This document shows, in pieces, positions 2,376-31,845 of a stretch of DNA of 32,000 nucleotides. Position 1 is the first letter of the stretch. The number at the start of each line of letters is the position of its first letter. The position numbers and the translations under genes were made by a program. A model generated the notes under the pieces. That model was not told the origin of the DNA and searched no databases. It saw only the letters and a program-made list of their open reading frames with translations. The stretch spans positions 90,001 to 122,000 of the forward strand of contig RQZE01000006.1 of the NCBI GenBank assembly GCA_003858585.1, given 5' to 3'. The stretch is from Erysipelotrichaceae bacterium OH741_COT-311. GTDB taxonomy: Bacteria; Bacillota_I; Bacilli_A; Erysipelotrichales; Erysipelotrichaceae.

Positions 2376-2405
2376 TAAAAAAAAGAACTTTTTGAGAAAA
2401 GTTCT
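2376..2405 (-). terminator. Rho-independent terminator after the DUF1700 gene
   Basis: On the minus strand, AGAACTTTT / AAAAGTTCT forms a 9-bp stem (2384-2392 with 2397-2405) with a 4-nt loop, followed by a run of 8 T (A-run 2377-2384 on the plus strand). It overlaps the stop codon at 2404-2406. Confidence 0.6.
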
Positions 2406-4396: not shown

Positions 4397-4398
4397 TG

Positions 4399-4710: not shown

Positions 4711-4726
4711 GTTACCTCCTGATATC

Positions 4727-4755
4727 AATGTATCACCACTACCTTGTATTGTCAA
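4727..4755 (-). promoter_or_regulatory. Sigma-A-type promoter of the padR operon
   Basis: On the minus strand: TTGACA (4755-4750), a 17-nt spacer, then TACATT (4732-4727), just upstream of the RBS. A TGATATCA palindrome lies between the -10 and the RBS and could be an operator. Confidence 0.5.
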
Positions 4756-4853
4756 GTACTAGGTATAATTTATTAATTTATGAAAGGTAAGTATAGTATT
4801 ATTTTTATTTAATGATATAATTTATTTAAATAGTAGTCGGAGGTAAATAATAT

Positions 4854-5660
4854 ATGACTTTGTTTTCCATTCTAGAATCGGTTGAAGATGTTAGAAAAGG
4901 TGGCTATTTAGCTGATTTTAATGGGTATCTGGAAGATTATTTAGAAATTATGGATTCAAATGAAGAGGCATATGAGGTATTTAAAACGTTGTTTGAAGCA
5001 AATCCCGATTTAAAGATAATTGTTAATTATCGTACTAATATTTCTAAGGAATCTATCTCTAACCAAATTATTCGTTATAAAGATGTATTTAAGTTAAAAG
5101 AAAATTCGATTGTATGTCCTTATATCTTATATGGGAAAGAGCATGATGTTGAAAAGGCAATTCTGTTAACAAATGAAAGCTATATCTTTGCAAAAGGATT
5201 GTATTATTGTTTAACAGAACCGTTTAATACGTTTCAAGAAGTTAATAATGATTTACTGGCGATGTGCTTGGATAAGCCTGAATTAATAGTAAAAGTATTT
5301 AGTCGTTTATTTACGTACCGTACAGGTGCTTTACAACGTGAAGTAGATCAAAGTTATTTTACAAGCTATGAAGATGCAAAAACTTCAGCGTTGCAACTGT
5401 CTTTCAACTTGAAAGAAAAAGCTCAACAAGAATTAATTGGTAAAGAAGAGGCGAATGAATACATTACAGGATTAATTGTAAAATGGTTTTTAATTAAGAA
5501 ATATATTTATGTACAGTATATGATTAATAAAGACATTTTAAAAAATGTCCATGAGGGTAATGTTAAGAAGCAACGAAATCAAGCTAAAATCTATGCGGAT
5601 GAAGTAAGTTTCTTATCGTTTTCTGAACTTTGGAAACTTGCGACCAATAAACAGGCATAA
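4854..5660 (+). CDS. Hypothetical protein with no recognisable motif
   Basis: 268-aa ORF with SD GGAGG 8 nt upstream and a GATATAAT -10 upstream. It is soluble and I recognise no family motif. Confidence 0.55.
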   Translation: MTLFSILESVEDVRKGGYLADFNGYLEDYLEIMDSNEEAYEVFKTLFEANPDLKIIVNYRTNISKESISNQIIRYKDVFKLKENSIVCPYILYGKEHDVEKAILLTNESYIFAKGLYYCLTEPFNTFQEVNNDLLAMCLDKPELIVKVFSRLFTYRTGALQREVDQSYFTSYEDAKTSALQLSFNLKEKAQQELIGKEEANEYITGLIVKWFLIKKYIYVQYMINKDILKNVHEGNVKKQRNQAKIYADEVSFLSFSELWKLATNKQA

Positions 5661-13083: not shown

Positions 13084-13132
13084 TATTAACTGAACAGGAG
13101 TGATATATAGACACAAAAAGGAGGATAAAGCA

Positions 13133-14971: not shown

Positions 14972-14995
14972 AACCAAATATCAACCAAGCAAAAG

Positions 14996-15026
14996 AGGTT
15001 TCCGAAGTACAGGAAATCTTTTTTTG
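14996..15026 (+). terminator. Rho-independent terminator after the recombinase gene
   Basis: AGGTTTCC (14996-15003), an 8-nt loop, GGAAATCT (15012-19) with one G-U pair, followed by TTTTTTT. Confidence 0.6.
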
Positions 15027-15047
15027 TGCAAGTAAAAGGAGGATTAA

Positions 15048-15230
15048 ATGACCGAAAAACAAAAACCACAGACCAACGAAGAACAAGCGACACACCGAAA
15101 ACCTGATGGCATTCTAACAAAAAAGATGAATGGAAAGACCTTTGTAACAGAAATATATTTTGATAAAAAGAGCAAGGATACCTTTCAAGATAAGCTGTTA
15201 AAGATAGTGCAAGCCCAGCGGAAAGAATAA
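15048..15230 (+). CDS. TnpW-like small transposon-encoded protein
   Basis: 60-aa ORF behind AAAGGAGGA. KKMNGKTFVTEIYFDKKSKDTFQDKLLKIV resembles the small TnpW proteins of Tn4451-type elements (R.G.TtY.V.v.Fs..skEt..DKi..Li), as I recall them. Confidence 0.4.
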   Translation: MTEKQKPQTNEEQATHRKPDGILTKKMNGKTFVTEIYFDKKSKDTFQDKLLKIVQAQRKE

Positions 15231-15336
15231 ATAAAACAAACACTTTGTATTTTGCTTCTCCGTGCTTTTCAATCTGTTCCTATGAAAAACACGAAAGCAA
15301 GCAGAAAATCCGACAGTGGAAAAAATGCCCTCAAAA

Positions 15337-15345
15337 TGGTATAAT
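15337..15345 (+). promoter_or_regulatory. Extended -10 promoter (TGGTATAAT) of cargo cassette 1
   Basis: TGGTATAAT lies 65 nt upstream of the ATG at 15410. It is embedded in a about 40-nt block repeated upstream of the second cargo gene. Confidence 0.5.
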
Positions 15346-15409
15346 ATTGATAAACAATTAGAGAAACAAGTTTGAATTTATTGAGATGAACTTTGGGAGA
15401 GGTATTAAG

Positions 15410-15931
15410 ATGGGTGGGGTTTGGCTATTGCTAATATTCTTAACTGTAAGATTTGGTTTGTTTTCTATCATAAAAAAAGAAGCTATACAGCGAGCAGGAT
15501 ATTTTGCTCCAATACAAAAATCTGAAAAAGTAGCATATTACATCTACCAAGTATCTAATATAGCATTATTAATATGCGTGATGGTATCATCAGTAAAAAT
15601 TGATTTTTCTCTTCAATTTTATTTAGGCTTATCGCTCTTTTTGGTAGGTATATTATTATGTGCAATTTCAGTTGTGTGTTTTGCTTTCCCGAATGATGAG
15701 GGGTTAAATACCAATGGTATTTATAAATTTTCAAGAAATCCGATGTATGTGGCTTATTTTGTTTGCTTCTTAGGGATGTCTTTATTAATACAGTCATTAA
15801 TCATGTTGGTAATGGTGTTAATCTTCCAGATTTCTGCTCATTGGATTATTGTATCGGAAGAAAGATGGTGTTTAGAAAAGTTCGGAAAAAGCTATGAAGA
15901 TTATACAAAAAAGGTTCGACGATACATTTAA
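15410..15931 (+). CDS. ICMT/PEMT-like membrane methyltransferase family protein (cargo 1)
   Basis: A polytopic membrane protein with GIYKFSRNPMYVAYFVCFLGMSL, the G.Y...RNPMY signature of the isoprenylcysteine carboxyl / phospholipid methyltransferase family. The ATG at 15410 follows GGGAGAGG. Confidence 0.6.
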   Translation: MGGVWLLLIFLTVRFGLFSIIKKEAIQRAGYFAPIQKSEKVAYYIYQVSNIALLICVMVSSVKIDFSLQFYLGLSLFLVGILLCAISVVCFAFPNDEGLNTNGIYKFSRNPMYVAYFVCFLGMSLLIQSLIMLVMVLIFQISAHWIIVSEERWCLEKFGKSYEDYTKKVRRYI

Positions 15932-15987
15932 ACTATCTCCTCGTTTGTTGGAGTGAAGTAAACAAAAGCTATAACATGACAATTCAC

Positions 15988-16030
15988 GAAACAGTAAATT
16001 AAATCGGTTTACTGTTTTTTTATTGCTCAA
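15988..16030 (+). terminator. Cassette-1 terminator, copy A of a conserved 43-nt module
   Basis: AAACAGTAAA (15989-98), a 9-nt loop, TTTACTGTTT (16008-17) as a perfect 10-bp stem, then a T-run and the conserved tail TTGCTCAA. It is repeated at 18734-18775. Confidence 0.7.
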
Positions 16031-16054
16031 AATCAAGAAGAAAGGACAAGGAAA

Positions 16055-16375
16055 ATGAAAAATATAGAAGAAAAGATTTTAATGGCAGAAGAAGAAATCA
16101 AGCAGTTACGAAACAAAAGAAAAAAGCTCATCAGTCAGCAGAAAGAGGAGGAACGAAAAAAGAGAGATAGACGGCTTTATGAAAAAGGAGGAGTATTTGA
16201 AAGTATCTTTACTGAAAGCAAAGAATTAACCAAAGATGAATTTTATCAGCTCATAAGTTCTCTAAATCATAAAGAAGAAATCCGACAAAAAATCAAGAAA
16301 ATCATAGCTAAGCGAGAAGAAAACGAAAACCAAAATATAGAAACACAAGAGGAAGTAACGGACATCGGGGAATAG
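16055..16375 (+). CDS. DUF3847-like relaxosome accessory protein
   Basis: A 106-aa basic coiled-coil protein (EEEIKQLRNKRKKLISQQKEEERKKRDRRLYEKGGVFESIF) lying immediately upstream of the oriT-like region and relaxase. This pattern and position are typical of DUF3847. Confidence 0.5.
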   Translation: MKNIEEKILMAEEEIKQLRNKRKKLISQQKEEERKKRDRRLYEKGGVFESIFTESKELTKDEFYQLISSLNHKEEIRQKIKKIIAKREENENQNIETQEEVTDIGE

Positions 16376-16560
16376 TCCCTTGTTTACAAGGGTGCACTTA
16401 TACACCCTAAAGGGTGTGTGCGTTCTCCGAAGGCTCTTGCAGAGAGCATATCAGCTAAACGCTGATACAGGGGAGCTACACTCCCCTACGGAAATAAATT
16501 TCCTACCCCTTGTGTACTTCCCAAAAGAAATCGGATAAAAAGCAATTCGATTTTTTTAGG
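16376..16560 (+). other. Candidate oriT: dense cluster of short inverted repeats
   Basis: Inverted repeats: CCCTTG/CAAGGG (16377-92), AGGGTG..CACCCT (16389-16408), GCTCT/AGAGC (16433-47), TATCAGC/GCTGATA (16449-67), GGGGAG/CTCCCC (16470-86), GGAAAT/ATTTCC (16490-16503) and AAATCG/CGATTT (16528-53). Direct repeats: AGGGTG (16389, 16411) and CCCTTGTnTAC (16377, 16507). The region lies between the accessory gene and the relaxase gene. Confidence 0.5.
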
Positions 16561-16616
16561 AAGTCTTATCCATCGCCACATCAAAGTATCAGAACAACGA
16601 AAGGGGGTTTTCTCTT

Positions 16617-18077
16617 ATGGCAATATATCATCTCAGTATCAAAATTATCTCAAGAGGCAAAGGCAAGAGTGCAGTTGCAGCTTCCGCCTATCGAAGTGGC
16701 GAAAAGATAAAAAATGAGTATGACGGCATAGTCCATGACTTTACAAGAAAAGGAGGAATCGCCCATACCGAAATTCTATTACCACAAAATGCACCACAGG
16801 AGTTTTTGGACAGGGGAACATTATGGAATAGCGTGGAGAAAATCGAAAAAAGTAAAAACTCACAGCTTGCAAGAGAAATAGAAATCGCCTTACCCAAAGA
16901 ATTAAACCGAGAAAAACAGATAGAACTTGTACGAGAATATGTAAAAGAAAATTTTGTGAAAGTCGGTATGTGTGCCGATATTGCCTTACACGACAAAAAT
17001 GACAGAAACCCACACGCACATATCCTATTAACAATGCGACCGTTAAACGAAGATACAACATGGGGAGCAAAATCAAAAAAAGAATATATCCTTGATGAAA
17101 ACGGAGAAAAAGTAAAACTCAAAAATGGCAATTACAAAACCAAAAAAATCAATATAGTCGATTGGAATGAGCAAGAAAAAGCGGAAGAGTGGCGAAAAGC
17201 ATGGGCAGATATTACCAACAAATATTTGGAAGAAAACAATATACAGGAAAAAGTGGATCACCGTTCTTATCAAAGACAAGGAATAGAACAAATACCGACT
17301 ATTCATTTAGGAGTATCGGCAACACAAATGGAAAAGAAAGGCATAGACACAGACAGAGGAAATATCAACAGAGAAATCAGAAAACAGAATAGGCTATTAC
17401 AGGAAATAAAGTTAAGAATAAAAGCCTTACTAAATTGGATAAGAGGAATTGGAAAAGAAGAAAAGGCAGAAACTGAAAATATCAAATCAGCCCTCCCATC
17501 CAAAGAAAATCTATTGTCAGTTTTTGAAAATCTTATCCGTAAAAATGCAGATAACCATAATACAGATTTAGAGCAATACATCGAAAGCTATCAATTCTTA
17601 AAAGAGAACAATATCATTTCTGTATCTGAACTGAAAGAAAACATAGTTACTTTAAGAGATAAGAACTACAAGACCACAAGAGCTATTAAAGATACTGAAA
17701 AGCAGATTGATGATAGAGTACAGCTTATCGACCACGCCGAAAAATATTTGAAGCATAAAGACACCTATAAAGCCTATATCAAGCTGAAGAAAAACAAACA
17801 AGATATTTTCTACAATGAACATACCGCAGAGATTATTTTATTTGAAAGTGCGAAGAAATATTTGAAAGAACATTTAGGAGAAAGCAAGTCCTTAACTATA
17901 TCTAAATGGAAATCGGAAGTAACCGCCTTGAAGAAAGAAAAAGACAGTCTGTATTCTCAAATCATAGACCTACGGAAAGAAGTGGAACAAGCAGAAAGTG
18001 TAAGAAGCTGTATAGAGAAATTACAACAAGAAAACAGAGAAATAACACAGGTTAAGAAGCAAGAATTAGACCTGTAA
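16617..18077 (+). CDS. MobA/MobL family (MOBQ-type) relaxase
   Basis: MAIYHLSIKIISRGKGKSAVAASAYRSGEKI carries the catalytic Tyr motif and HDKNDRNPHAHILLTMRP is the HxDxxxPHxH histidine triad. A long coiled-coil C-terminus follows. Confidence 0.9.
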   Translation: MAIYHLSIKIISRGKGKSAVAASAYRSGEKIKNEYDGIVHDFTRKGGIAHTEILLPQNAPQEFLDRGTLWNSVEKIEKSKNSQLAREIEIALPKELNREKQIELVREYVKENFVKVGMCADIALHDKNDRNPHAHILLTMRPLNEDTTWGAKSKKEYILDENGEKVKLKNGNYKTKKINIVDWNEQEKAEEWRKAWADITNKYLEENNIQEKVDHRSYQRQGIEQIPTIHLGVSATQMEKKGIDTDRGNINREIRKQNRLLQEIKLRIKALLNWIRGIGKEEKAETENIKSALPSKENLLSVFENLIRKNADNHNTDLEQYIESYQFLKENNIISVSELKENIVTLRDKNYKTTRAIKDTEKQIDDRVQLIDHAEKYLKHKDTYKAYIKLKKNKQDIFYNEHTAEIILFESAKKYLKEHLGESKSLTISKWKSEVTALKKEKDSLYSQIIDLRKEVEQAESVRSCIEKLQQENREITQVKKQELDL

Positions 18078-18092
18078 AACTAATTGAAAATA

Positions 18093-18101
18093 TGGTATAA
18101 T
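18093..18101 (+). promoter_or_regulatory. Extended -10 promoter (TGGTATAAT) of cargo cassette 2
   Basis: This is the same TGGTATAATAT block as at 15337, lying 34 nt upstream of the ORF start at 18135. Confidence 0.5.
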
Positions 18102-18134
18102 ATAACAAACAGCGAGTAAAACAAATTAGAAGTT

Positions 18135-18695
18135 GTGGAGGTGAAAATTATAGATACTTCAAAATTCTCATGGAATGAGTTTGAACAAAATTTGTTTCAA
18201 GATGGAAAGTGGGAAATACCATCAAAGTACAAAATTAAAATAAATGATTCATCAGAGAAAAGATACAAATTAGAGATGATTTTATATAAGATGTCTCACA
18301 AATATGTAGCAAGATGGGCATTAGAAAATGCTCAAGCGTTCTTATCTTTTATAGAGATTGGTGATAAAGAGTTAAAGGAATCAATCATGTGTGAAACAAC
18401 AGCGGTATTAAATATGCGTATTGACGGGAAATCAAGTGCGTATAAACTGAGAAACGCTGGATTTTTAGCGAATAAATTAGGACAAATGTCAATTAATGAT
18501 TTAAGTAAATATTCTGCAAGAGTATTTGCACAATCCATAGCAACTGGTCATATGAGAGGACATGCTATTGTATCATCTGATTATGCTATTAAAGTTATTA
18601 ATATTTTATTCCCTAATGATAATTTAAAAGTCGAAGAAGAAAGAAATCGGCAAATTGAATTAGCGAATAAAATTATAAAGGAATATGATATTTAA
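18135..18695 (+). CDS. Imm5-like (putative immunity protein family) helical-repeat protein (cargo 2)
   Basis: VARWALENAQAFLSFIE ... YKLRNAGFLANKLGQ ... ARVFAQSIATGHMRGHAIVSSDYAIKVINI resembles, from memory, the pattern of the putative immunity protein / Imm5-like family (VAR.AA..AE.VLP.FE ... AR.AG.A.A.aH...Ha...A.YA.KA). The start is ambiguous: GTG 18135, GTG 18141, or ATT 18147 behind GGAGGTG. Confidence 0.35.
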   Translation: MEVKIIDTSKFSWNEFEQNLFQDGKWEIPSKYKIKINDSSEKRYKLEMILYKMSHKYVARWALENAQAFLSFIEIGDKELKESIMCETTAVLNMRIDGKSSAYKLRNAGFLANKLGQMSINDLSKYSARVFAQSIATGHMRGHAIVSSDYAIKVINILFPNDNLKVEEERNRQIELANKIIKEYDI

Positions 18696-18733
18696 ACAAC
18701 TCCCGGTTTGTCTAATTGAATATAACAATTTGA

Positions 18734-22070: not shown

Positions 22071-23243
22071 TTAATGATGACTTGCAATTTCTTGTGCTTT
22101 TTGTAGTGTTACTTTTGTGATGTATGGTCCAACTAATTCATAGATTAGCGTGGCACATAGTATGATGGCACGAATGGTTTGTCCATGACTTGGTACTGCA
22201 GCTTGAGCGATGAGTGATAGCCCGATTGCAACCCCGGCTTGCGGGATTAAGCATGGTCCTAAGTACTTGCGTACATTTTCAGGGGCTTTGGTTACTACTG
22301 CTCCGGCATAGGCTCCAAGGTATTTTCCAATTACACGTGCAATGATGTAAACACTGCCTAATACACCAATGGTTGGGATAATGGCAGGATTTAACTCTGC
22401 ACCGGATAATACAAAGAATAACATGAATAATGGTGGGGTCATTTCATCAACCAACTGCATCACTTTTTCCGATGTAGTGGATAGGTTACAATATACCGCT
22501 CCAAGTACCATACATACTAATAGTGAAGAAGCATGGAAGATGACAGATAAACCTAATGCAAGTAGGATAATCGCAATGACTAAGCTATTGCGATTTGCGT
22601 TATCTTTAAAGTAACGAATGACATAAGATAATAATAATCCTAAAGCTAAACCAATCACTAAGGAAACAATAATTTCAATAAAAGGACTTAATAACATTTC
22701 CAACATATTACTGTTTGCGTTGTTTAAATTGTTTGTGATTGCTAGTGCAAAGCCAAAACAGATTAAGGCAGCGGCATCGTCGATGGCGACAACACTTAGT
22801 AACGTTTCACTAACAGGTCCTTTGGCTTTGTATTGACGTATTACCATAATGGTTGCTGCTGGGGCAGTGGCTGAGGCGATAGATCCAATCATTAAAGAAA
22901 ACGATAAATCATTGCCTAGCAGTAACATAACACCTGTTACAATCATAACGGCTCCAACGGCTTCTAAAAAGGCGATGACAACTGGTGTTACACCTACTTT
23001 TTTAAAATAGCTAATCTTGAATTCACTTCCGATAGAGAATGCAATAAAACCAAGAGCGATGTTTGAAAAAACCATGAGTGTTTCTAATGTATGATGATTG
23101 ACAAGGTTTAAAACATTGGGTCCAACCAACAAACCACCTACTAAATAACCGGTTACAGATGGAAGTTTTACTTTTTTAGCTAAAAGTGAGAACAGTAAAC
23201 CGGTTGCAAATAAGAGTGCAACTTGTAAAAATAAATGATCCAC
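22071..23243 (-). CDS. Cation:proton antiporter (CPA2 / Na+-H+ exchanger family), with no RCK domain
   Basis: 390 aa and about 12 TM. The opening LLFATGLLFSLLAKKVKLPSVTGYLVGGLLVGPNVLNL is typical of Kef/NapA-type CPA2 proteins. Confidence 0.8.
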   Translation of the reverse strand: MDHLFLQVALLFATGLLFSLLAKKVKLPSVTGYLVGGLLVGPNVLNLVNHHTLETLMVFSNIALGFIAFSIGSEFKISYFKKVGVTPVVIAFLEAVGAVMIVTGVMLLLGNDLSFSLMIGSIASATAPAATIMVIRQYKAKGPVSETLLSVVAIDDAAALICFGFALAITNNLNNANSNMLEMLLSPFIEIIVSLVIGLALGLLLSYVIRYFKDNANRNSLVIAIILLALGLSVIFHASSLLVCMVLGAVYCNLSTTSEKVMQLVDEMTPPLFMLFFVLSGAELNPAIIPTIGVLGSVYIIARVIGKYLGAYAGAVVTKAPENVRKYLGPCLIPQAGVAIGLSLIAQAAVPSHGQTIRAIILCATLIYELVGPYITKVTLQKAQEIASHH

Positions 23244-23258
23244 AATTAATCCTTCTTT

Positions 23259-23609
23259 CTAATAAGTAAAACATCCACCTTCGATATAATCGCAAGGTAT
23301 AGTAAAAATAATACCGGTATCCGGCTTTGATAAGTCTCCTAGTACGGCATGAACGGCTGCTCGTGCTAATAAAACTTGTTCATCTTTCAAGACACAAATA
23401 ATAGTACGGTTTTCATCACGCTCAGGATTTAATAGAAAACGTAATGATCCAATAAAACGTTCGGCTTCATTACGATGACCATTAAATAAATGATGTGCCA
23501 TACCTGTACTATTTAAAATAGTAGCTCCTTGAATCCCATTATCTCCAAGTTTTGTTAATAGCTCATCCAACTTATCAACGTTGTTCAAGATAATAAACAT
23601 ACATTTCAT
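23259..23609 (-). CDS. PII-like (GlnB-fold) small signalling protein
   Basis: MKCMFIILNNVDKLDELLTKLGDNGIQGATILNSTGMAHH aligns by eye to the PII pattern MKkIeAIIkp.kLddV.eaL.e.GI.GmTv.ev.G.G. The C-terminal TGIIFTIPCDYIEG resembles G.IFV.dV..v.ri. The ATG at 23609 follows GGAGGA. Confidence 0.45.
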   Translation of the reverse strand: MKCMFIILNNVDKLDELLTKLGDNGIQGATILNSTGMAHHLFNGHRNEAERFIGSLRFLLNPERDENRTIICVLKDEQVLLARAAVHAVLGDLSKPDTGIIFTIPCDYIEGGCFTY

Positions 23610-23705
23610 AATGTTTTCCTCCAATAATAAAAACTATAAAACTTTTGATACAGTTTTTCAATACTTAGTCTTGAAAAATGCTATACTTATAAGGCGAGGT
23701 AGAAT

Positions 23706-24467
23706 ATGAATAAACAAGATCGTATCCTTCATTTAGCAACCTTAACCGGATTTTATTTGCTGGAAAGTGGTGGGGAAACATATCGAGTCGAAGATACCAT
23801 TTGTCGTATCTTACAAAATTATGGTATGAAAGAAGTAAGTGCCTTTACTTCTCCTACCGTCATTATTTCATCATGTATGGATGACGAGCGATCTTATAGT
23901 AAAGTATTAAGAGTGAATCGTAGTAAGGCTAATTTACAGCGTATTGATTTGTTAAATCAATTATCACGTGATTCCGATAAACTCTCTGTTGATGAATTTG
24001 AAGCTCGTTTACAGCATATCATTCAACAACCTACTTATCCAGCTTGGATTGAAATTGCATGTGCAGGTATTATTGCATTGGGATTTACACTGTTTTTTGG
24101 TGGAAAAGTATGGGATGCGTTAGCAGCTTTCGTGATTGGTTGCTTTGTATATGCGTTACATGGAGTGCTTGTAAAACATGCGTTAAATCCGTTTGTTAAA
24201 GTTGCGATTCAGTCGTTTGTGATTGCTTTTTTGGCAATGGTGGGATATAAGTATCACATTGTTATGGATTATAATCTTGTCATTATCAGTACGATTATGT
24301 TATTGGTACCGGGATTAGCGATTACCAATGCTATTAAAGACTTTTTATCCGGTGATTTGGTATCCGGAACGACACGTGGTTTTGAGGCTTTCTTAATTGC
24401 GATTTTTGTGGCATTGGGTTCCGGGATGGCTTTAACGATTTGGTTAAGGCTAGGAGGTCGCTTATGA
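23706..24467 (+). CDS. Threonine/serine exporter family protein, ThrE N-half (DUF1212)
   Basis: ILHLATLTGFYLLESGGETYRVEDTICRIL is the characteristic DUF1212/ThrE opening, followed by 5 TM. Confidence 0.8.
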   Translation: MNKQDRILHLATLTGFYLLESGGETYRVEDTICRILQNYGMKEVSAFTSPTVIISSCMDDERSYSKVLRVNRSKANLQRIDLLNQLSRDSDKLSVDEFEARLQHIIQQPTYPAWIEIACAGIIALGFTLFFGGKVWDALAAFVIGCFVYALHGVLVKHALNPFVKVAIQSFVIAFLAMVGYKYHIVMDYNLVIISTIMLLVPGLAITNAIKDFLSGDLVSGTTRGFEAFLIAIFVALGSGMALTIWLRLGGRL

Positions 24468-24892
24468 TTGTTCGTATATTAGGCTCTTTACTGGCTGCTT
24501 TAGGATTTGGAGTATTGTTTAATCTTAAGCAACATAAGTTGATATACGCATGTCTTGGTGGAGGGATTGGTGCCTTAGTACATGAATTTACTATGTATCT
24601 GGGACTTTCTTCCGTATTATCTTTACTGATAGCATCCATGGTTATTACTATGTATAGTGAGATTATGGCACGTAAATTAAAGACACCGGTAACTAGTTTT
24701 ATGGTCGTGGCGCTGATTCTTTTGGTGCCAGGTGGCGGAATGTATTATACGATGTTGGAAGTCATTTTAAATCGTACGGATAATGCTATAATAATAGGTG
24801 TTGATACCTTAGCAAAGGCAGGAGCTTTGGCATTAGGAACATTTGTTTCTACAACAATTAGAAAGTTATTATTTTTCAGGGGGCATCAATAA
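24464..24892 (+). CDS. Threonine/serine exporter family protein, ThrE C-half (DUF3815)
   Basis: 142 aa with 4-5 TM (LGSLLAALGFGVLFN..., LILLVPGGGMYYTM). The ATGA overlap with the upstream stop matches the usual two-gene arrangement of this family. Confidence 0.75.
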   Translation: MIVRILGSLLAALGFGVLFNLKQHKLIYACLGGGIGALVHEFTMYLGLSSVLSLLIASMVITMYSEIMARKLKTPVTSFMVVALILLVPGGGMYYTMLEVILNRTDNAIIIGVDTLAKAGALALGTFVSTTIRKLLFFRGHQ

Positions 24893-25794
24893 TGCAAAAT
24901 AAAAGGGCAATTTCACCAATTATCATTGGTATTATATTTTTAATCCTTACACGCTTGTTTGGATTTATAAGTTTTATCTTTTTGGGTTTTATTCTCAGCT
25001 TGTTTTTTGCAAATAAAAAAGATCAGAAACAAACAGCGATGGAGAAACGTCATCATAAGTATAAAATAAAACTTACCAAGAAAAACGAAGAACAGATTAA
25101 TCATAAATTAAAGGAGTATTTTACGGATAATGATCGTTTGATTGTTATTGATGGAATTAGTTTGCGTCCGTTAAAAGGGAGTTATGAAAATTTAAAGAAT
25201 TTGAATATGTATTACAATGAGGAGTGCATTGCAACCTTAGATGAATTCGCAAGCAGTTATCCAAGTGTTGCGCAGGAAATTTATGATTTATTAGTGAATT
25301 TTGCAAATAAGGAAGTGAAAGAAAAACCGAAGGTGCAAGAAAGTCCGAAGCGCATAGAGCCTAGTGCAACTTTATATATGAATCGTATCAATCAATTAAA
25401 TAATGAAATTGAACATGAAGAGATTTCAAATGGTTTATATAAAACAGCTTCTTTATTAAAAAACATTGAAGTGATTGAGCAAAAAGATCCAAATAGTAAG
25501 GAACAATTAACGAAGTTATATAGTTACTATATGCCTATTTTGGTGGATATTTTAGAAAAATACAAATCATTGTCGTTGGGTGATGTAAATAATCAAGAGT
25601 ATTTAAAGAGTGAAGAACAATTAATTAAGACCATCGTTTTAATTAATGAGGCGTTAAAAAATATTATTAGTACATTAAATGAAGATGATTATATGCATTT
25701 GTCGGCTGATATTACTACCTTACAGTCTTTGCTTAAGAAAGATGGTTTGGTTGATGAAGGTACTTTGAAAGTAGGTAATGATTATGAACGATAA
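24892..25794 (+). CDS. XpaC-like (5-bromo-4-chloroindolyl phosphate hydrolysis protein family) membrane protein
   Basis: Two N-terminal TM segments are followed by a helical domain. LTKLYSYYMPILVDILEKYKSLS...IKTIVLINEALKNIISTL...ADITTLQSLLKKDGL fits the XpaC family pattern (yYLP...kLl..Y..l ... d...l...l...gl). The start overlaps the upstream stop (TAATG). Confidence 0.55.
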   Translation: MQNKRAISPIIIGIIFLILTRLFGFISFIFLGFILSLFFANKKDQKQTAMEKRHHKYKIKLTKKNEEQINHKLKEYFTDNDRLIVIDGISLRPLKGSYENLKNLNMYYNEECIATLDEFASSYPSVAQEIYDLLVNFANKEVKEKPKVQESPKRIEPSATLYMNRINQLNNEIEHEEISNGLYKTASLLKNIEVIEQKDPNSKEQLTKLYSYYMPILVDILEKYKSLSLGDVNNQEYLKSEEQLIKTIVLINEALKNIISTLNEDDYMHLSADITTLQSLLKKDGLVDEGTLKVGNDYER

Positions 25795-26335
25795 GAGAAA
25801 TAGCATAAAAGACGAAGTGGAACATATTTTTGATGCCTTGTATGATGATCTTGCTAAGGATAAGTTAGATATTGATCCCAAGGCCTTTGGGCGTGTGTTT
25901 AATAAAGATGAAAATGATGAATATACGCTATTTCGTGATTCTAAGTATGAAAAGTATAGTTATCGTCCGTTATCTCGTCCAATGGTGTTAAAGAGTTATC
26001 GTGATTTAACGTTTGATTCTCGTTATGATTATTTTATTAATTATATTAGTAATGTGGACTATCGTGGGCGTGGACAAGAAGATCCTTATCGTAAAGGTCA
26101 TATGGCTGCTTTAGAGAAGTATTATCATAAGGGACAACAAAATAAAGATAATTTGTTAATCATAGAACCGATCTTAGAAAATGAAATCTTACGTGCAAAG
26201 GGGAAAAAGAATCATTATCAATATGATGGTGGTTATTATGATGGCTTATTGTATGTGCGTTTGGCACTGAAGAAAAGTAAATGGAATATGATTGATAAGA
26301 TTGCAGAAGAATTGAACAAGAAGTTGAAGAGGTAG
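25778..26335 (+). CDS. Hypothetical soluble protein, Tyr/Asp/Arg-rich, no recognisable family
   Basis: 185-aa ORF overlapping the upstream gene by 17 nt and ending 2 nt before the next ATG. Contains YRGRGQEDPYRKGH and YQYDGGYYDGLLYV. Confidence 0.55.
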   Translation: MIMNDKRNSIKDEVEHIFDALYDDLAKDKLDIDPKAFGRVFNKDENDEYTLFRDSKYEKYSYRPLSRPMVLKSYRDLTFDSRYDYFINYISNVDYRGRGQEDPYRKGHMAALEKYYHKGQQNKDNLLIIEPILENEILRAKGKKNHYQYDGGYYDGLLYVRLALKKSKWNMIDKIAEELNKKLKR

Positions 26336-26337
26336 TT

Positions 26338-28332
26338 ATGAAGCAAGAAAAACGTGAACAATTGTTGAAAGAGGTATTAGGGAAAAAACGTAGTTTACAT
26401 AATTTAAATCAAGAAGCAAAAGAGTTGGTAGATATTACTAATCAAGAGTTATTAAATCTGATACAATCCAATCAACAAGAGATTCTTCAACTATCCAAAG
26501 AATTAAATTTTACGGATGAAGATTTTGAGAATCTACGTAAGGATATTGAAAAGGATTTTCATGTCAAAGTGGAAGATACAACCATACCGGTAAATCCTAA
26601 GGACATTAAAGTGATTTTTCAAGAAATGGAAGAGAATTTGAATCGTGTCGTATTAGGGCAAGCTCAAGCGATTAAAGATATGATAGTGGCATTAAAAAGA
26701 CCATATGTAATAGGTAGTCATCCGGATTATTTAAAGAATACAATTTTAATTCATGGTAATAATGGTACCGGACGTCATTTATTGGTTAAGGAAGTAGCCA
26801 ATGAATTGCTTAAGCATAAACTTAGTCCATCCAATGAAATTGCAATCTTGGATATGCAACGTTATCAATCAAGCAGTCAAGAGACTATCTTTCTTCAAGA
26901 TTTGTATATGGCATTGAATGGAAATGCTGGTATCATTGCGGTAGAACATATTACAGAGGGATATACAGTGTTTAATCGTATGCTTCAACAATTAGTGGTA
27001 GAGAAGCGTATTGTGTTAAACAAGCGTTATACATTAAAACATGGCTATCTTCAAGAGGCGACAAGTGGCTTAGTCAAGGATGCCATTGATGTGTTGACCG
27101 GGAATGGTAAGTTGTTAGTCTTTCTTACCGATAAGAAAATGTCGGATGTATTGGATACCTATGGAAAACAATTCATTGATACAGTTGTTGATAAGATTGA
27201 AACGGTCAAGTTAAATGATGCGGTGATTGGTGTCATTGTAGATAAGCTTTTAGAGAGTTTATTAAACAAGATGAAGGTTCAGTTAAAGGTACAAGTACAG
27301 TTGCATGATAGTGTGAAACAATGGTTGCTGTCAAAGTATCAACCAAGTGATGGGATGGATTCGATTACACCATTTATTCAGGTAATTTATAATGCTTTAG
27401 TGGATGTGGTCTTAAATCATCATGATGTTAGTGGAGTGGAAATACAGTTTGATGAAACATTAATGATTAAGCATCATGAAGAATGGATTAAGGTGGATTT
27501 GCGTGATGATTCGGTTGTGGAGCGTCAAAAAATTCAAGAAGAATTGGATCGTATTGTTGGCTTGGATGAAGTAAAAGAGTATTTACTTTCTTTGGAAGAT
27601 CATTTAAAGATTACAAACTTGCGTAAGCAAAAGGGTCTAAAGGTTACCGAAGTAAGTAAACATATGATTTTTACAGGAAATCCTGGTACTGGTAAGACGA
27701 CGATTGCACGTTTGGTTTCTCGTTTGATGAAGGTTGCGGGTGTTTTAAAACAAGGACAGCTGGTGGAGGTTACTCGTCAAGACTTAGTTGGTAAGTATGT
27801 TGGTCATACTGCACCATTAACAATGTCAGTGATTCAAAGTGCTTTGGGTGGTGTTTTATTCATTGATGAGGCATATTCTTTATATCGTGGTAAAGATGAT
27901 TCGTTTGGTTTAGAGGCGATTGATACTTTAGTAAAGGCAATGGAAGATTATCGAGATGATCTGATTGTGATTTTAGCGGGTTATTCGAAAGAGATGAGTG
28001 AGTTTTTAACATCGAATTCAGGATTAAAATCACGTTTTGCCAATATCATTCATTTTAAAGATTATACAGGGATGCAGTTGTTACAAATTGCTCGTATCAT
28101 TGCTCAAAGTAAAGAATATAAGTTAAATATGGCTGTTGAAAAGCCATTGTTAGAGTATTTCTTAAAGGTACAAGCAGATAATAGTCAAACAAGTGGTAAT
28201 GGACGTTTGGCTCGTAATGTTATTGAAGATGCCATTTTAAAACAGGCAAAGCGTATTTTAAAGAATCCTGATGCGGATATGTTGGAGCTTGTTTTAGAGG
28301 ATTTTGATGTATTAGCACAAGACAACGAATAA
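26338..28332 (+). CDS. Two-domain AAA+ protein: degenerate Clp-D2-like domain plus intact SpoVK/CbbX-type AAA domain
   Basis: Domain 1: VLGQAQAIKDMIVALKRP...NTILIHGNNGTGRHLLVKEVANEL...GIIAVEHITEG. This has the ClpA/B D2 layout, but Walker A Lys is replaced by Arg-His and Walker B DE by EH. Domain 2: IVGLDEVKEYL...MIFTGNPGTGKTTIARLV...VLFIDEAYSL...LIVILAGY...LKSRF, with canonical SpoVK/CbbX motifs. Confidence 0.8.
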   Translation: MKQEKREQLLKEVLGKKRSLHNLNQEAKELVDITNQELLNLIQSNQQEILQLSKELNFTDEDFENLRKDIEKDFHVKVEDTTIPVNPKDIKVIFQEMEENLNRVVLGQAQAIKDMIVALKRPYVIGSHPDYLKNTILIHGNNGTGRHLLVKEVANELLKHKLSPSNEIAILDMQRYQSSSQETIFLQDLYMALNGNAGIIAVEHITEGYTVFNRMLQQLVVEKRIVLNKRYTLKHGYLQEATSGLVKDAIDVLTGNGKLLVFLTDKKMSDVLDTYGKQFIDTVVDKIETVKLNDAVIGVIVDKLLESLLNKMKVQLKVQVQLHDSVKQWLLSKYQPSDGMDSITPFIQVIYNALVDVVLNHHDVSGVEIQFDETLMIKHHEEWIKVDLRDDSVVERQKIQEELDRIVGLDEVKEYLLSLEDHLKITNLRKQKGLKVTEVSKHMIFTGNPGTGKTTIARLVSRLMKVAGVLKQGQLVEVTRQDLVGKYVGHTAPLTMSVIQSALGGVLFIDEAYSLYRGKDDSFGLEAIDTLVKAMEDYRDDLIVILAGYSKEMSEFLTSNSGLKSRFANIIHFKDYTGMQLLQIARIIAQSKEYKLNMAVEKPLLEYFLKVQADNSQTSGNGRLARNVIEDAILKQAKRILKNPDADMLELVLEDFDVLAQDNE

Positions 28333-28346
28333 CGTTGTCTTTTTTG
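28320..28346 (+). terminator. Rho-independent terminator closing the five-gene operon
   Basis: AGACAACG (28320-27), loop AATAA, CGTTGTCT (28333-40) as a perfect 8-bp stem, followed by TTTTT. It overlaps the stop codon of the AAA+ gene. Confidence 0.7.
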
Positions 28347-28354: not shown

Positions 28355-29041
28355 ATGAGTAAGATACAAAAAGAGCTTAAAAAGATGCAGGATCTTGCAT
28401 ATCGTGATTTTAATGCTAAGTTAATTCCGAATGTAGATGTTTCTACTATGATTGGTGTACGCAGTCCTATGCTTAAGCGTTATGCCAAAGAGATTTCTAA
28501 GGATGAAAAGACAAAGAATGATTTTTTAAAGAGTTTACCGCACGTTTATTTTGATGAATATATGCTACATATTCACATCATTAATTTAGAGAAAGACTTA
28601 GAAATTGCTTTTAAGGAGGTCAATAAGTTATTGCCTTATGTTGATAATTGGGCGGTGTGTGATTCTTTGTGTCCTAACATTTTTAAGAAATATCCCGATG
28701 AGGTGTATGCGTGTATTTTAAAGTGGTTAACGAGTGAGCATGTCTATACCAAACGGTTTGCGATTGGTTTATTACTGAGCAATTATCTAGATGAGCATTT
28801 TAAAGAAGAACATTTGAGATTAGTTAGTCAGTTAAATAGCGATGATTATTATTTGGATATGATGATTGCTTGGTATTTCAGTATTGCATTAATCAAGCAG
28901 TGGAATTGTACCTTACCATATTTTACCAATCCTACTATGAAACCTTGGGTTATTAATAAAGCAATAAGCAAGGGGATTGACAGTTATCGTTTAAGTAAAG
29001 AACAGAAGGATTATTTACGAAGCTTAAAAATCAAAAAGTAA
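28355..29041 (+). CDS. DNA alkylation repair protein (AlkD/AlkC-like HEAT-repeat family)
   Basis: AYRDFNAKLIPNV...IGVRSPMLKRYAKEI...VDNWAVCDSLC...KRFAIGLL is the pattern of the DNA_alkylation family. Confidence 0.75.
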   Translation: MSKIQKELKKMQDLAYRDFNAKLIPNVDVSTMIGVRSPMLKRYAKEISKDEKTKNDFLKSLPHVYFDEYMLHIHIINLEKDLEIAFKEVNKLLPYVDNWAVCDSLCPNIFKKYPDEVYACILKWLTSEHVYTKRFAIGLLLSNYLDEHFKEEHLRLVSQLNSDDYYLDMMIAWYFSIALIKQWNCTLPYFTNPTMKPWVINKAISKGIDSYRLSKEQKDYLRSLKIKK

Positions 29042-29071
29042 AATATGGTAAAATAAGATAGAGGGTTGGAT

Positions 29072-30517
29072 ATGAAAACAATAACAAGAGATTTATCACT
29101 ATTGATGGATTTTTATCAATTGACCATGGCAAACGGTTATTTTAAAGATGGCTTAAAAGATCAAGAGGTTATTTTTGAGATGTTTTTTCGTAGAGTGCCG
29201 GATGGCGGTGGTTTTGCGATTATGTGTGGCTTGCAACAAGTCATTGAATACATTAATCATTTAACATTTACGGATGAAGATATTACCTTTTTGCGTAATA
29301 AGCATCTGTTTGACGAAGCCTTTTTAGAATATCTAAAAAACTTTAAGTGCACCTTGGATATTTATGCGTTTAAAGAGGGCACACCGATTTTTCCAAATGA
29401 ACCGATTATTAAGGTTGTGGGGTCCATTATACAAGCACAGTTAATTGAAACGATGATTTTATTAACTGTCAATCATCAAAGTTTAATTGCGACAAAAGCC
29501 AATCGCATTGTGCGTAGTGCCGAAGGTAAAGTGGTGATGGAATTTGGAGCACGTAGAGCGCATGGGTATGATGCCGCTTTATATGGTGCAAGAGCGGCGT
29601 ATATTGGTGGTGTAAATAGTAGTGCTAACGTCTTATCTGATAAGCTGTTTGATATACCATCGGTTGGGACTATGGCTCATAGCTTTGTACAGTTATATCC
29701 GGATGAATATACTGCATTTAAAAAGTATTGTTGGATGTACCCAAATAATGCCAGTTTATTAGTAGATACCTATAATGTGTTAAAAAGTGGGGTTCCAAAT
29801 GCTATTTTGGTAGCGAAAGAGGTACTGCATCCAATGGGACAGCGTTTAAAAAGTATTCGTTTAGATAGTGGGGATTTAACTTATTTGTCTAAAAAAGCTC
29901 GTAAGATGTTGGATCAAGCCGGTATGCAGGATTGTAAGATTATCGTGTCAAATAGTTTGGATGAGTATATGATTCAATCATTATTGATTCAAGGGGCTTG
30001 TATTGATTATTTTGGGGTTGGAGAACGTTTGATTAGTGCCAAAAGTGAACCGGTTTTTGGTGGAGTTTATAAAATTGCGGCGGTTAAAGAAAATGGTAAG
30101 TTTGAACCACGCATTAAGATTAGTGAAAACATTGAAAAAATTACAACACCTGCTGATAAAGAGGTATATCGTCTCTATGATGAAAATCATAAGGCAATTG
30201 CGGATGTTTTGACCCTTAAAGATGAAGTCATTGATACAAGTAAGCCTTATACAATTTTTGATCCAATTAGTACGTGGAAGCGTAAAGAGTTAGTTAACTT
30301 TACGGTAGAGCCAATGTTGGTGCCAATCTTTATTAAAGGAAAACAAGTTTATCAAAGTCCAAGTGTAAGTGAAATACGAGAATACTGTATACAACAAGTT
30401 CAAACGTTATGGGAAGAGTCTTTGCGTTTTGAAAATCCGCATAATTACTATGTTGACTTGTCAAAGCCGTTATGGGATTTGAAACAAGAATTACTGGAAA
30501 GTAAGAACCAGCGATGA
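29072..30517 (+). CDS. pncB: Nicotinate phosphoribosyltransferase
   Basis: LLMDFYQLTMANGYF...FEMFFR...GTMAHSFVQ...IRLDSGDL are NAPRTase family motifs. I chose the ATG at 29072. Confidence 0.9.
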   Translation: MKTITRDLSLLMDFYQLTMANGYFKDGLKDQEVIFEMFFRRVPDGGGFAIMCGLQQVIEYINHLTFTDEDITFLRNKHLFDEAFLEYLKNFKCTLDIYAFKEGTPIFPNEPIIKVVGSIIQAQLIETMILLTVNHQSLIATKANRIVRSAEGKVVMEFGARRAHGYDAALYGARAAYIGGVNSSANVLSDKLFDIPSVGTMAHSFVQLYPDEYTAFKKYCWMYPNNASLLVDTYNVLKSGVPNAILVAKEVLHPMGQRLKSIRLDSGDLTYLSKKARKMLDQAGMQDCKIIVSNSLDEYMIQSLLIQGACIDYFGVGERLISAKSEPVFGGVYKIAAVKENGKFEPRIKISENIEKITTPADKEVYRLYDENHKAIADVLTLKDEVIDTSKPYTIFDPISTWKRKELVNFTVEPMLVPIFIKGKQVYQSPSVSEIREYCIQQVQTLWEESLRFENPHNYYVDLSKPLWDLKQELLESKNQR

Positions 30518-31092
30518 AGGCAGTTTATGTAGGGTCATTTAATCCCGTTACCTATGGACATTTAGAGGTTGCCACAACAGCTTTGATGTATGCAGAAGAT
30601 GTTATTTTTGTTCCCGTTTCAGATTATTATAATAAAACTAGTTTGACAGTATCCGCTTTGCATCGTATTGAGATGTTAAAAAGAGCGTTAAAAAATCCTA
30701 AATTTAAGATTTCAAGAATTGAAGTGGATAGTACACGCCAATATAAAACCATCGAAACACTAACATTTCTAAAGAATGTTTATCATGAGGAACTAATGTT
30801 GGTGATAGGTGCCGATAATTTAAAGGAAATTAGTCGTTGGTATCAAGCGGAAGAATTGTTAAAGACGTATTACCTTTTAGTATTTAATCGTAATGAAGAT
30901 TTAAAACAAATTGTACTGACGGATCCATTACTGGCGAAATATCAAGAGCGTATCCATTTAGTCAATGATTTTGATAAAGATATTTCAAGTGAACAAGTAC
31001 GTAAGTTGTGTAAAATGAAGCAAAGTATTGAAGAATATGTTCCAAATGAAGTAGCATCTTATATTTATGAACATAAACTATATCAGGAATAA
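30514..31092 (+). CDS. nadD: Nicotinate-nucleotide adenylyltransferase
   Basis: GSFNPVTYGHL is the (T/H)xGH nucleotidyltransferase motif and ISSEQVR is the ISST-like motif. It has an ATGA overlap with pncB. Confidence 0.85.
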   Translation: MKAVYVGSFNPVTYGHLEVATTALMYAEDVIFVPVSDYYNKTSLTVSALHRIEMLKRALKNPKFKISRIEVDSTRQYKTIETLTFLKNVYHEELMLVIGADNLKEISRWYQAEELLKTYYLLVFNRNEDLKQIVLTDPLLAKYQERIHLVNDFDKDISSEQVRKLCKMKQSIEEYVPNEVASYIYEHKLYQE

Positions 31093-31101
31093 GGAGTTTG
31101 T

Positions 31102-31845
31102 ATGGAGTATTTAAGAGATTGGAAGCAGGAGATTTTAGATCGTGCAGCATGGATTGCACAATATGTAAGCAATGCCAAGGCAAATGGTGTTGGCTTAGGG
31201 TTAAGTGGTGGTAAAGATAGTGTGATTGTTTCTTTCTTGTGCCATGAGGCTAAAGTACCTATTTTAGGGTGTGCTTTGCCCATTGGAAATGCGAAGGAAG
31301 ATGAAGAAATTGCAAAGTATTATGCGGATATGTTTCAGATTGAGTTTTATAATCTGAATTTGCAAAAGCCTTTTGAAGCGTTAATGAAATGTATGGAAGA
31401 AACTGCTATTCAAGTGGAGGGCTTATCTATGGCAAATATAAAGCCACGTTTGCGTATGACAACGATGTATGCTTTGTGTCAAGCACGTAATTATTTAGTG
31501 ATTGGTACCGGTAATCTTAGTGAATATACAACGGGTTATTTTACAAAGTGGGGCGATGGAGCTTATGATTTTAATCCCATTCGTGATTTGACAGTTCGAG
31601 AATTAAATGATTTGATGAAGTACATTGATGAACACTATGACTATGATTTTAAAACGATTCGTGCTCGTGTTCCTTCCGGGGGGTTATATATTGGGCAAAC
31701 AGATGAAGAAGAACTAGGTATTAGCTATGAAAAGATTGATGAGTATATTTTGGGAACTCCGGATCTTGAAACAAAGGAATATTTAGATCGTTTATATCAA
31801 AGAACCAATCATAAGCGTACATTGCCTCCTGTATATAAAAAGTAA
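31102..31845 (+). CDS. nadE: Ammonia-dependent NAD+ synthetase
   Basis: The PP-loop GLSGGKDS is present, along with GTGNLSEYTTGYFTKWGDG. The about 247-aa size fits NadE. Confidence 0.9.
   Translation: MEYLRDWKQEILDRAAWIAQYVSNAKANGVGLGLSGGKDSVIVSFLCHEAKVPILGCALPIGNAKEDEEIAKYYADMFQIEFYNLNLQKPFEALMKCMEETAIQVEGLSMANIKPRLRMTTMYALCQARNYLVIGTGNLSEYTTGYFTKWGDGAYDFNPIRDLTVRELNDLMKYIDEHYDYDFKTIRARVPSGGLYIGQTDEEELGISYEKIDEYILGTPDLETKEYLDRLYQRTNHKRTLPPVYKK

Follow-up and report, generated by a model that had tools for sequence, protein, structure and literature searches.

A conserved gene trio of Erysipelotrichaceae encodes an XpaC-like membrane protein, a small protein without a named family and a two-ring AAA+ ATPase, and is joined in one species to a ThrE/ThrE_2 exporter pair

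Results

A run of five genes in Erysipelotrichaceae bacterium OH741_COT-311

The subject of this study is a run of five closely packed genes in a 32,000-nucleotide stretch of DNA from Erysipelotrichaceae bacterium OH741_COT-311 (GCA_003858585.1, contig RQZE01000006.1, positions 90,001 to 122,000, forward strand), which is referred to here as the window, all positions being counted from its first nucleotide. The run encodes a two-gene ThrE-type exporter, an XpaC-like membrane protein (XpaCL), a small protein of an unnamed family, and a AAA+ ATPase, and our bioinformatics analyses single out the last three genes, hereafter the trio, as the conserved unit. The open reading frames (ORFs) and associated features are as follows.

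23625-23705, + strand: intergenic stretch 5' of thrE, between thrE and a divergent pair of genes encoding a P-II-like protein and a CPA2 antiporter
23706-24467, + strand: thrE, 253 residues (ORF list)
24464-24892, + strand: thrE2 (ThrE_2), 142 residues from the ATG at 24464; the ORF opens at 24440
24892-25794, + strand: XpaC-like gene, 300 residues
25784-26335, + strand: small-protein gene, 183 residues, or 185 residues from the ATG at 25778
26338-28332, + strand: AAA+ gene, 664 residues
28319-28346, + strand: terminator-like hairpin and U-tract, with a 9-bp stem and a 5-nucleotide loop that holds the stop codon of the AAA+ gene

Reading of the sequence places an ATGA at 24464-67 between thrE and thrE2, with AGGAGG 7 nucleotides upstream, a TAATG at 24890-94 between thrE2 and the XpaC-like gene, a 17-nucleotide overlap between the XpaC-like and small-protein genes (ATG at 25778, TAA at 25792-94), and a TAG-tt-ATG at 26333-40 between the small-protein and AAA+ genes. 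The NCBI start for the small protein (183 residues) is the ATG at 25784, which shortens the third overlap to 11 nucleotides. Upstream of the run, the ATG at 23706 is preceded by a GAGG Shine-Dalgarno (SD) sequence and by TGcTATACT, which resembles an extended -10 box; a consensus scanner listed no + strand site in 23625-23705, and from its sequence this stretch is the probable promoter region of the fused operon in the OH741_COT-311 species. At the other end, the hairpin at 28319-28341 followed by its U-run folds with -10.7 kcal/mol (z = -4.06), a value equaled by none of 200 shuffled sequences. It was not among the sites listed by the same consensus scanner, whose single + strand site (25877-25891) was weak and whose number of hits was no higher than chance. 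Because an SD sequence 9 nucleotides past the U-run and an ATG at 28355 open the next gene on the same strand, read-through beyond the hairpin into that gene may occur. To judge from Pfam matches and from the homologues of the small protein, the five ORFs are real genes and not chance ones. The initial annotation of this run, made from the sequence alone, thus had the ORFs, their junctions and the terminal hairpin in the right places, as borne out by the ORF list, our reading of the sequence and RNA folding; it was also right in assigning the products to a split ThrE-family exporter (by Pfam, ThrE and ThrE_2), an XpaC-like protein (XpaC domain in Pfam), an orphan and a two-domain AAA+ protein (of the SpoVK/CbbX/EccA type by NCBIfam), and in taking the 185-residue orphan to belong to no characterized family (null results in Pfam, NCBIfam, PDB, and BFVD).

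The first two genes are an ordinary exporter pair

The product of the first gene matches ThrE (PF06738) over residues 10-245 of 253 (E 8.9e-71, 238.6 bits against a cutoff of 26.3), and that of the second matches ThrE_2 (PF12821; E 1.7e-34, 119.3 bits against a cutoff of 27), both matches being full-length, above the gathering score of the respective Pfam model, and in adjoining genes. Scores against the NCBIfam equivalogs fell far below the cutoffs, with 57.6 bits against 550 for ThrE (NF047720) and 32.4 bits against 249 for YjjB (NF007391). By these matches, the two proteins are members of the ThrE/ThrE_2 family and not orthologues of an exporter of known substrate. The split two-gene layout is the common bacterial form of ThrE, as in E. 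coli yjjP-yjjB, and by sequence the pair is an ordinary YjjP/YjjB-type exporter with thrE as the large and thrE2 as the small subunit.

The last three genes are conserved together across Erysipelotrichaceae

One genome per GTDB species was scanned with the XpaCL alignment, which gave 155 relatives; the best 80 loci were analyzed, with ORFs called anew and labelled by hidden Markov model and phmmer searches, and the counts below refer to these 80 species-level loci (designated by L numbers) unless another denominator is given. All 80 are labelled as, or resemble, Erysipelotrichaceae; those with names belong to Erysipelotrichaceae, Holdemania, Solobacterium, and Thomasclavelia, and a few are "cleanbin" metagenome-assembled genomes (MAGs) with other labels. 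The initial annotation had made its reading depend on whether the three downstream genes keep together outside this genome, and they are syntenic far beyond it. Already in the first three look-ups of XpaCL homologues, the trio was found every time, with XpaCL of about 315 residues, a small protein of 168-191 residues, and a AAA+ protein of 661-692 residues, in an upstream context that differed (ABC transporters or VanZ). In the full set, the AAA+ gene lies 3' of the XpaC-like gene in 75 of the 77 loci with enough sequence, and the small gene is found between the two in 66 of 78. In all 66, the gap between the XpaC-like and small genes is at most 27 nucleotides, and that between the small and AAA+ genes is at most 12 nucleotides, with one outlier in a fragmented gene. 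The flanks elsewhere are conserved housekeeping genes (TrmE, TatD, and Pth) in most species and, because of this, point to a vertically inherited core module. Two contigs from the same MAG, RGIG622, carry one trio locus each, one with the upstream family F6 described below (L037 and L071 taken together) and one without it; this double locus reflects either paralogy or contamination of the bin.

The exporter pair does not share this conservation. ThrE/ThrE_2 adjoins the trio only in L007, which is the window species itself at 99% identity, and the suggestion of the initial annotation that ThrE, XpaC, and AAA+ act as a unit does not extend to any of the other loci. We are therefore highly confident that the conserved unit is the trio of XpaCL, small protein, and AAA+ protein, not the five genes, and that ThrE is incidental to it. 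The initial annotation had also placed the small protein and the AAA+ protein in the position of TelA, the classical partner of XpaC; this holds for the window, which has no telA, but not for about 18 of the 80 loci, in which the trio is followed directly by telA, sometimes together with a canonical xpaC. Of the 51 loci that extend 8 kb or more downstream, 13 have telA there, and other loci add to this number. For example, telA comes next after the trio in two of the first three look-ups, in one case preceded by a canonical xpaC.

Elsewhere, the trio carries its own promoter-like signature

A TGnTATAAT-type -10 box is found 7-10 nucleotides before the ATG of the XpaC-like gene (ATGAGAAGA, "MRR"), with no SD sequence, in 34 of the 80 loci; it lies just 5' of the XpaCL start, at about position 10000 in full-length loci, and the pattern is kept even where F6 lies upstream on the same strand. 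The loci are listed here.

-10 box, first part: L020, L030-L033, L037, L041, L044, L046, L047, L051-L053, L056, L058
-10 box, second part: L060-L062, L064-L067, L069, L071-L075, L077, L080, L082, L083, L085, L086

A -10 box so close to the start codon is, by its sequence, the signature of a leaderless transcript beginning at the XpaCL ATG, an arrangement that is uncommon in Firmicutes. In the window, the XpaC-like gene starts from an AGGGGG SD sequence inside thrE2 and from a TAATG shared with the thrE2 stop codon. Because the trio has its own -10 box in 34 loci, its junction with thrE is most readily taken as an operon fusion particular to this species, in which the leaderless-type promoter of the trio was lost. 

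A conserved TTAGCACTCGTTTA motif was also seen 5' of the -10 box, in the intergenic region between family F3 and the XpaC-like gene, in L047, L056, L065, L066, L069, L071, L072, L077, L080, L082, and L083. The TTAGCACTC within it corresponds to one arm of CIRCE, the operator of HrcA, the second arm of which is not visible, and the conservation of the motif may reflect only the shared ancestry of close relatives.

The genes upstream of the trio in other species are unrelated to ThrE and comprise two recurrent unnamed families, ABC transporters, and VanZ. The first of these families, F3 (about 190 residues, charged and helical), lies divergently upstream of the trio in 44 of the 80 loci, and some of its members weakly resemble apolipoprotein-type amphipathic helices; the second, F6 (about 270 residues), lies upstream in 22 of the 80. 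Neither has a Pfam match, and PDB profile searches with both gave nothing meaningful.

XpaCL is an XpaC-domain protein with an additional domain

XpaCL matches the Halogen_Hydrol/XpaC model (PF10112) with its C-terminal 113 residues (162-274; E 1.2e-10, 42.1 bits against a cutoff of 29.8), which correspond to positions 76-188 of the 191 in the model, the first 75 remaining unmatched. In a comparison of profiles by hhalign, XpaCL and canonical XpaC from related loci align over the helical domain with 98.3% probability (E 2e-14), the region in common including a YYLP motif and a C-terminal D-I-x-x-L-x-x-L-L-x-x-x-G motif. Homologues of XpaCL number 254. An AlphaFold2 (AF2) model built on 26 homologues has a mean predicted local distance difference test (pLDDT) score of 78.8, with both folded domains above 90, and predicts a hydrophobic N-terminal helix (9-40, in an anchor of about 8-40), a disordered and very basic linker, an alpha/beta domain (63-139), the four-helix XpaC domain (159-283), and a disordered tail. 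The alpha/beta domain is absent from canonical XpaC, and XpaCL, with 300 residues and this inserted domain, departs from the canonical architecture of about 200 residues in which the anchor leads directly into the helical domain. Because the basic linker follows the anchor on its C-terminal side, the positive-inside rule suggests that the soluble domains are cytoplasmic and share their compartment with the other two proteins of the trio. A Foldseek search of the PDB with the XpaCL fold returned generic four-helix bundles alone (such as Rx-CC and FAT, E >0.09), the family profile gave nothing meaningful against PDB sequences, and hhalign found no relationship between XpaCL and TelA.

The small protein defines a family that occurs in natural fusions

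A word-indexed homologue search with the small protein returned only the query, whereas an exhaustive HMMER search over 1.84 billion representatives recovered 56 relatives at E <=1e-3 and 15 at E <=1e-10, these relatives being clusters at 50% identity; the proteins encoded at the corresponding position in three independent loci share 29-33% identity with the window protein. The N-terminal third is variable, and the helical C-terminal domain (about 65-183, with about 110 residues common to the family) is conserved and carries the motifs RYxxF, YxxGHxxAL, NxxNL, and KGYYDGLxYVxxALxxSK. The AF2 model has a mean pLDDT of 83, exceeding 90 in this domain, which is predicted to be helical. The family has no match in NCBIfam, PADLOC, the PDB (by sequence profile or by fold), or the viral folds of BFVD, nor in Pfam, even when all 56 members were scanned with E values as high as 1, and hhalign found no relationship to TelA. 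Kinship between the small protein and XpaCL was considered and rejected, the hhalign match being confined to the hydrophobic anchor of the fusion proteins described next. From its sequence, the small protein is cytosolic and belongs to a family without prior description.

Six longer members of the family combine a hydrophobic anchor, an alpha/beta domain of the XpaCL type ("KEYF..."), and the small-protein domain. Stand-alone fusion proteins of 261-312 residues, which lack the XpaC helical domain, are encoded at the following positions of their loci.

L006: 3921-4718
L087: 3663-4601
L088: 2598-3383

Because natural fusions join their domains, this Rosetta-stone-type evidence suggests joint action of the small protein and the membrane protein.

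The ATPase appears to combine a pseudo-ring with a motor ring

The AAA+ protein consists of an N-terminal coiled-coil region, a first ring (ring 1, about 88-380) that is Clp-D2/torsin-like, and a second ring (ring 2, about 396-655) of the CbbX/SpoVK/EccA type. Ring 2 matches AAA (PF00004, E 2e-20) and AAA_lid_6 (PF17866, E 6.3e-11) in Pfam and aligns end to end with CbbX (3zuh, E 3.9e-56) and EccA1 (9lur, E 5.7e-54) in the PDB. The features of the broad CbbX/SpoVK/EccA-type clade are all present (AAA with AAA_lid_6, Walker A and B, a pore-loop aromatic residue, and an arginine finger or sensor); the best NCBIfam models, on the other hand, were matched below their equivalog cutoffs, with 300.7 bits against 422.95 for SpoVK (TIGR02881, E 6.5e-90), 246.9 against 466.65 for EccA (TIGR03922, E 4e-73), and 234.9 against 459.25 for CbbX (TIGR02880, E 1.1e-69). 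Ring 1 matches Torsin at 88-162 (Pfam) and the C terminus of ClpA D2 at 265-367 (NCBIfam).

Across 63 full-length homologues, the Walker A sequence GNPGTGKTT, the Walker B DE, the pore-loop Y487, R566, and R623/R626 of ring 2 are invariant. In ring 1 of the same homologues, the P-loop is conserved yet degenerate, GxxG[TS]G[R49/K14]H58, and the Walker B reads hhhhE58-N42 where hhhhDE would be expected; mean identity to the window protein is 73% in ring 2 and 40% in ring 1. Because the motifs of ring 2 are invariant and those of ring 1 degenerate, the protein probably pairs one pseudo-ring (ring 1) with one working motor ring (ring 2).

A profile of the N-terminal domain of the ATPase found 118 proteins, of which those labelled are from Erysipelotrichaceae. 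ATPases with a related N-terminal domain also occur in Oscillospiraceae-like genomes, at 27-29% identity and without XpaC-like neighbours. One is carried by a 247-kb Subdoligranulum "plasmid 44" (L089, OY725878.1; N-domain identity 27%), and another two-ring AAA+ protein is encoded in a record labelled "UNVERIFIED: Bacteriophage sp." (L090, MT837216.1), beside RF3, YitT, and a radical-SAM/SPASM gene, on account of which this record looks like a mislabelled fragment of a bacterial chromosome. No XpaC-like gene lies beside the ATPase in L089 or L090, and both were therefore rejected as extensions of the trio.

Other features of the window

Homologues of F3 and F6 are present in the window at 3842-5660, 20 kb from the trio and beside a PadR-HAAS pair, with accessory genes and an integrated mobilisable element in between. 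The remaining features are as follows.

2404-3867, - strand: HAAS-domain protein
3842-4396, - strand: F3 homologue, 184-residue charged helical protein
4399-4755, - strand: PadR, in an operon with the F3 and HAAS genes
4854-5660, + strand: F6 homologue, 268 residues, divergent from the PadR/F3/HAAS operon
13100-14971: large serine recombinase with DUF4368, mobilisable element
16617-18077: MobA/MobL relaxase, mobilisable element
18135-18695: Imm5-like immunity protein, mobilisable element
22071-23624, - strand: 121-residue P-II-like protein (below the Pfam cutoff) and CPA2-type Na+/H+ exchanger, divergent from thrE

The mobilisable element (13100-18700) has a G+C content of 0.39-0.41, compared with about 0.31 around it; rRNA was ruled out as the source of this higher-G+C stretch at 13-18 kb, and an Rfam scan of the window found no RNA family. 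After the hairpin, 28355-31845 on the same strand encodes a protein resembling DNA_alkylation-repair proteins (Pfam), followed by ORFs of 483, 192, and 247 residues whose translations seem to resemble nicotinate phosphoribosyltransferase, NadD, and NadE. In L007, too, the trio is followed by these four genes.

Discussion

Our analyses suggest that two separate things have been joined in one operon, a ThrE/ThrE_2 exporter and a trio of genes conserved across Erysipelotrichaceae; for this explanation as a whole, including the mechanism set out below, we consider the chances about even. As to the trio itself, we infer, tentatively and with rather less than even confidence, that it is a module specific to this lineage which carries out remodelling at the membrane, driven by ATP, and which belongs to the XpaC/TelA envelope-stress family. 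In this scheme, XpaCL would assemble with the small protein into a complex at the cytoplasmic side of the membrane, and the AAA+ protein would dock on this complex as a hexamer. CbbX-type AAA+ hexamers remodel their client by gripping a terminal tail in the central pore, and in the trio the pore-loop tyrosine, driven by ATP, could pull on a disordered segment, so that the complex, or a TelA/XpaC-type assembly, would be remodelled, disassembled, or reset. Two segments are candidate handles for the pore, namely the N-terminal third of the small protein, which is variable, and the disordered XpaCL tail that follows the invariant LLKKDGL motif. Such remodelling would act within an XpaC/TelA-type response to cell-envelope stress. 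In the window species, the trio would have lost its leaderless-type promoter and become translationally coupled to thrE2, a local rearrangement that would imply no functional link to ThrE.

Several observations weigh against this interpretation. Which of the three proteins binds which is something we infer only, and the structure searches, which gave generic helical-bundle matches only, do not inform the mechanism. The three genes are not always found together, since the small gene is absent from 11 loci even at relaxed thresholds (L023, L024, L027, L028, L035, L040, L050, L070, L078, L081, and L084), where the XpaC-like gene abuts a slightly longer AAA+ gene (668-735 residues), and since L011 (Holdemania filiformis DSM 12042) and L076 carry the XpaC-like and small genes with no remnant of a AAA+ gene by tblastn. 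The fusion proteins of L006 and L087 likewise have no adjoining AAA+ gene, and in L088 the downstream gene is cut by the end of the contig. Because of these loci without the small gene, loci without the AAA+ gene, and fusions without a AAA+ neighbour, parts of the trio can evidently work in other combinations. The link to TelA is also incomplete: telA is nearby in only about a quarter of the loci, TelA (PF05816) has no homologue among the window ORFs, and the association may in part reflect the shared ancestry of close genomes. The synteny as a whole comes largely from one bacterial family, so that common descent inflates the counts. Last, in the window species the trio is physically coupled to thrE2, and its co-expression with the exporter is real there. 

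In 8 of the 11 loci without the small gene, a protein of about 700 residues with a 5'-nucleotidase C-terminal domain is encoded downstream, and in 7 of the 11 telA lies 2-6 kb downstream. A 265-residue protein (f34) that recurs where the small gene is missing was ruled out as a diverged form of the small protein.

A variant of the remodelling module, possible in our view and less probable than the general form given above, is that XpaCL and the small protein build a scaffold beneath the membrane which the two-ring ATPase assembles or disassembles, much as in a membrane repair or remodelling machine of the ESCRT-III/Vps4 or PspA-AAA+ kind. A different reading is that the trio is a signalling switch of the anti-sigma or partner-switch kind, in which the membrane protein would sequester the small protein, or the reverse, until a signal causes the AAA+ protein to release it. 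A small protein that joins a variable N-terminal third to a conserved helical domain would suit such a role, as would the fusions that tether the small domain to a membrane anchor and the position of the window homologues of the usual upstream neighbours in or next to a PadR-HAAS signalling operon; however, no DNA-binding or sigma-like domain was found in the three proteins, and we consider a switch unlikely.

Less probable still is a role of the trio in defence, against phage or in some other conflict, with the ATPase and a membrane effector at its core. A membrane protein with an ATPase is a common architecture in defence, the family is lineage-restricted, and the AAA domain bears a weak similarity to the IetA/IteA, TRIP13, and DolB models. 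These PADLOC-DB 2.0 matches, however, cover a generic and partial AAA region (IetA, TRIP13, and DolB, with E values of 2.5e-9 at best), neither XpaCL nor the small protein has any PADLOC match, BFVD yielded no viral fold match, and the only "phage" record with a related AAA+ protein is a mislabelled bacterial fragment. The housekeeping flanks in most species fit vertical inheritance and not a variable island, and the idea raised in the initial annotation of an accessory, for example anti-phage, module grafted onto thrE finds no support in these data.

That the five genes form one functional unit, with the ThrE exporter assisted, gated, or kept under quality control by the AAA+ and XpaC-like proteins, corresponds to the export-coupled remodelling raised in the initial annotation. 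It is what the locus taken by itself would suggest, since all four junctions are overlaps or 2-nucleotide gaps, a promoter would not fit between thrE2 and the XpaC-like gene, and the genes are almost certainly co-transcribed in the window genome. It is largely refuted by synteny, because a ThrE/ThrE_2 pair adjoins the trio in one species among the 80 loci and the trio elsewhere has its own -10 box and leaderless-type start behind quite different upstream genes, and we regard it as very improbable. Least probable of all is that the ATPase is a SpoVK orthologue in a sporulation cluster or an EccA-like secretion chaperone, since, although SpoVK and EccA are its best NCBIfam matches, both scores are well below the equivalog cutoffs, the degenerate N-terminal ring lies outside the matched SpoVK, CbbX, and EccA1 regions, and the flanks showed genes neither for sporulation nor for type VII secretion.

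To our knowledge, no mechanism is known for XpaC or TelA, which have stood uncharacterized for decades although both are found repeatedly in regulons of envelope stress and in tolerance screens with nisin, daptomycin, and tellurite. The tie between an XpaC-domain protein and a threading AAA+ motor suggests that XpaC-type assemblies may need active remodelling and, if the trio is indeed a repair or remodelling machine of the scaffold kind considered above, it would offer the first mechanistic handle on the role of XpaC/TelA in resistance to these agents. The analysis also defines new unannotated families (the small protein, F3, and F6). Its scope is narrow, since the trio as such belongs to a single family of Firmicutes from the gut and the mouth.

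Comparison with known systems

Compared with other YjjP-YjjB exporters, the window pair is unremarkable except for its downstream fusion to the trio, which is limited to the window species. The known systems to which the trio is tied in evolution are the xpaC-telA operons. In B. subtilis, the core regulon of sigma-W for envelope stress includes both xpaC-yaaN(telA) and the AAA gene yjoB (PMC3498285); mutation of telA makes Listeria sensitive to nisin, and a bacteriocin induces lmo1966-67 (PMC12791056); and xpaC-telA has been implicated in daptomycin resistance in E. faecium (PMC6811118). XpaCL is membrane-anchored like XpaC, and its four-helix cytoplasmic domain is homologous to that of XpaC, whereas it carries an extra alpha/beta domain between the anchor and the XpaC domain, and its immediate partners are the small protein and the AAA+ protein in place of TelA. 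The ATPase, on the other hand, relates to CbbX, SpoVK, and EccA1 through ring 2, which aligns end to end with CbbX and EccA1 and keeps the Walker A and B motifs, the pore-loop tyrosine, and the arginines; it differs from them in adding a degenerate ring and an N-terminal coiled coil, and its genomic partners are entirely different.

The closest functional parallel is with PspA or Snf7 paired with a protein of the "inactive AAA + active AAA" type, for which ATP-dependent membrane remodelling has been predicted (Ravi et al. 2024, PMC11237479). As in the trio, a membrane-associated helical stress protein is encoded beside an ATPase with two AAA copies of which the N-terminal one is inactive, the ATPases being compared here by their published description; the partner in the trio is instead an XpaC-domain protein together with an unnamed family, and no Pfam match to PspA_IM30 or Snf7 was found in XpaCL, the small protein, F3, or F6. 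Literature searches likewise returned no description of an association between XpaC and a AAA+ protein. Because XpaCL is non-canonical, the small family is new, the ATPase scores below the curated thresholds, and PspA and Snf7 are missing, the trio belongs to no described system; it resembles the dyads of a membrane-stress protein and a AAA+ ATPase while being tied in evolution to XpaC/TelA.

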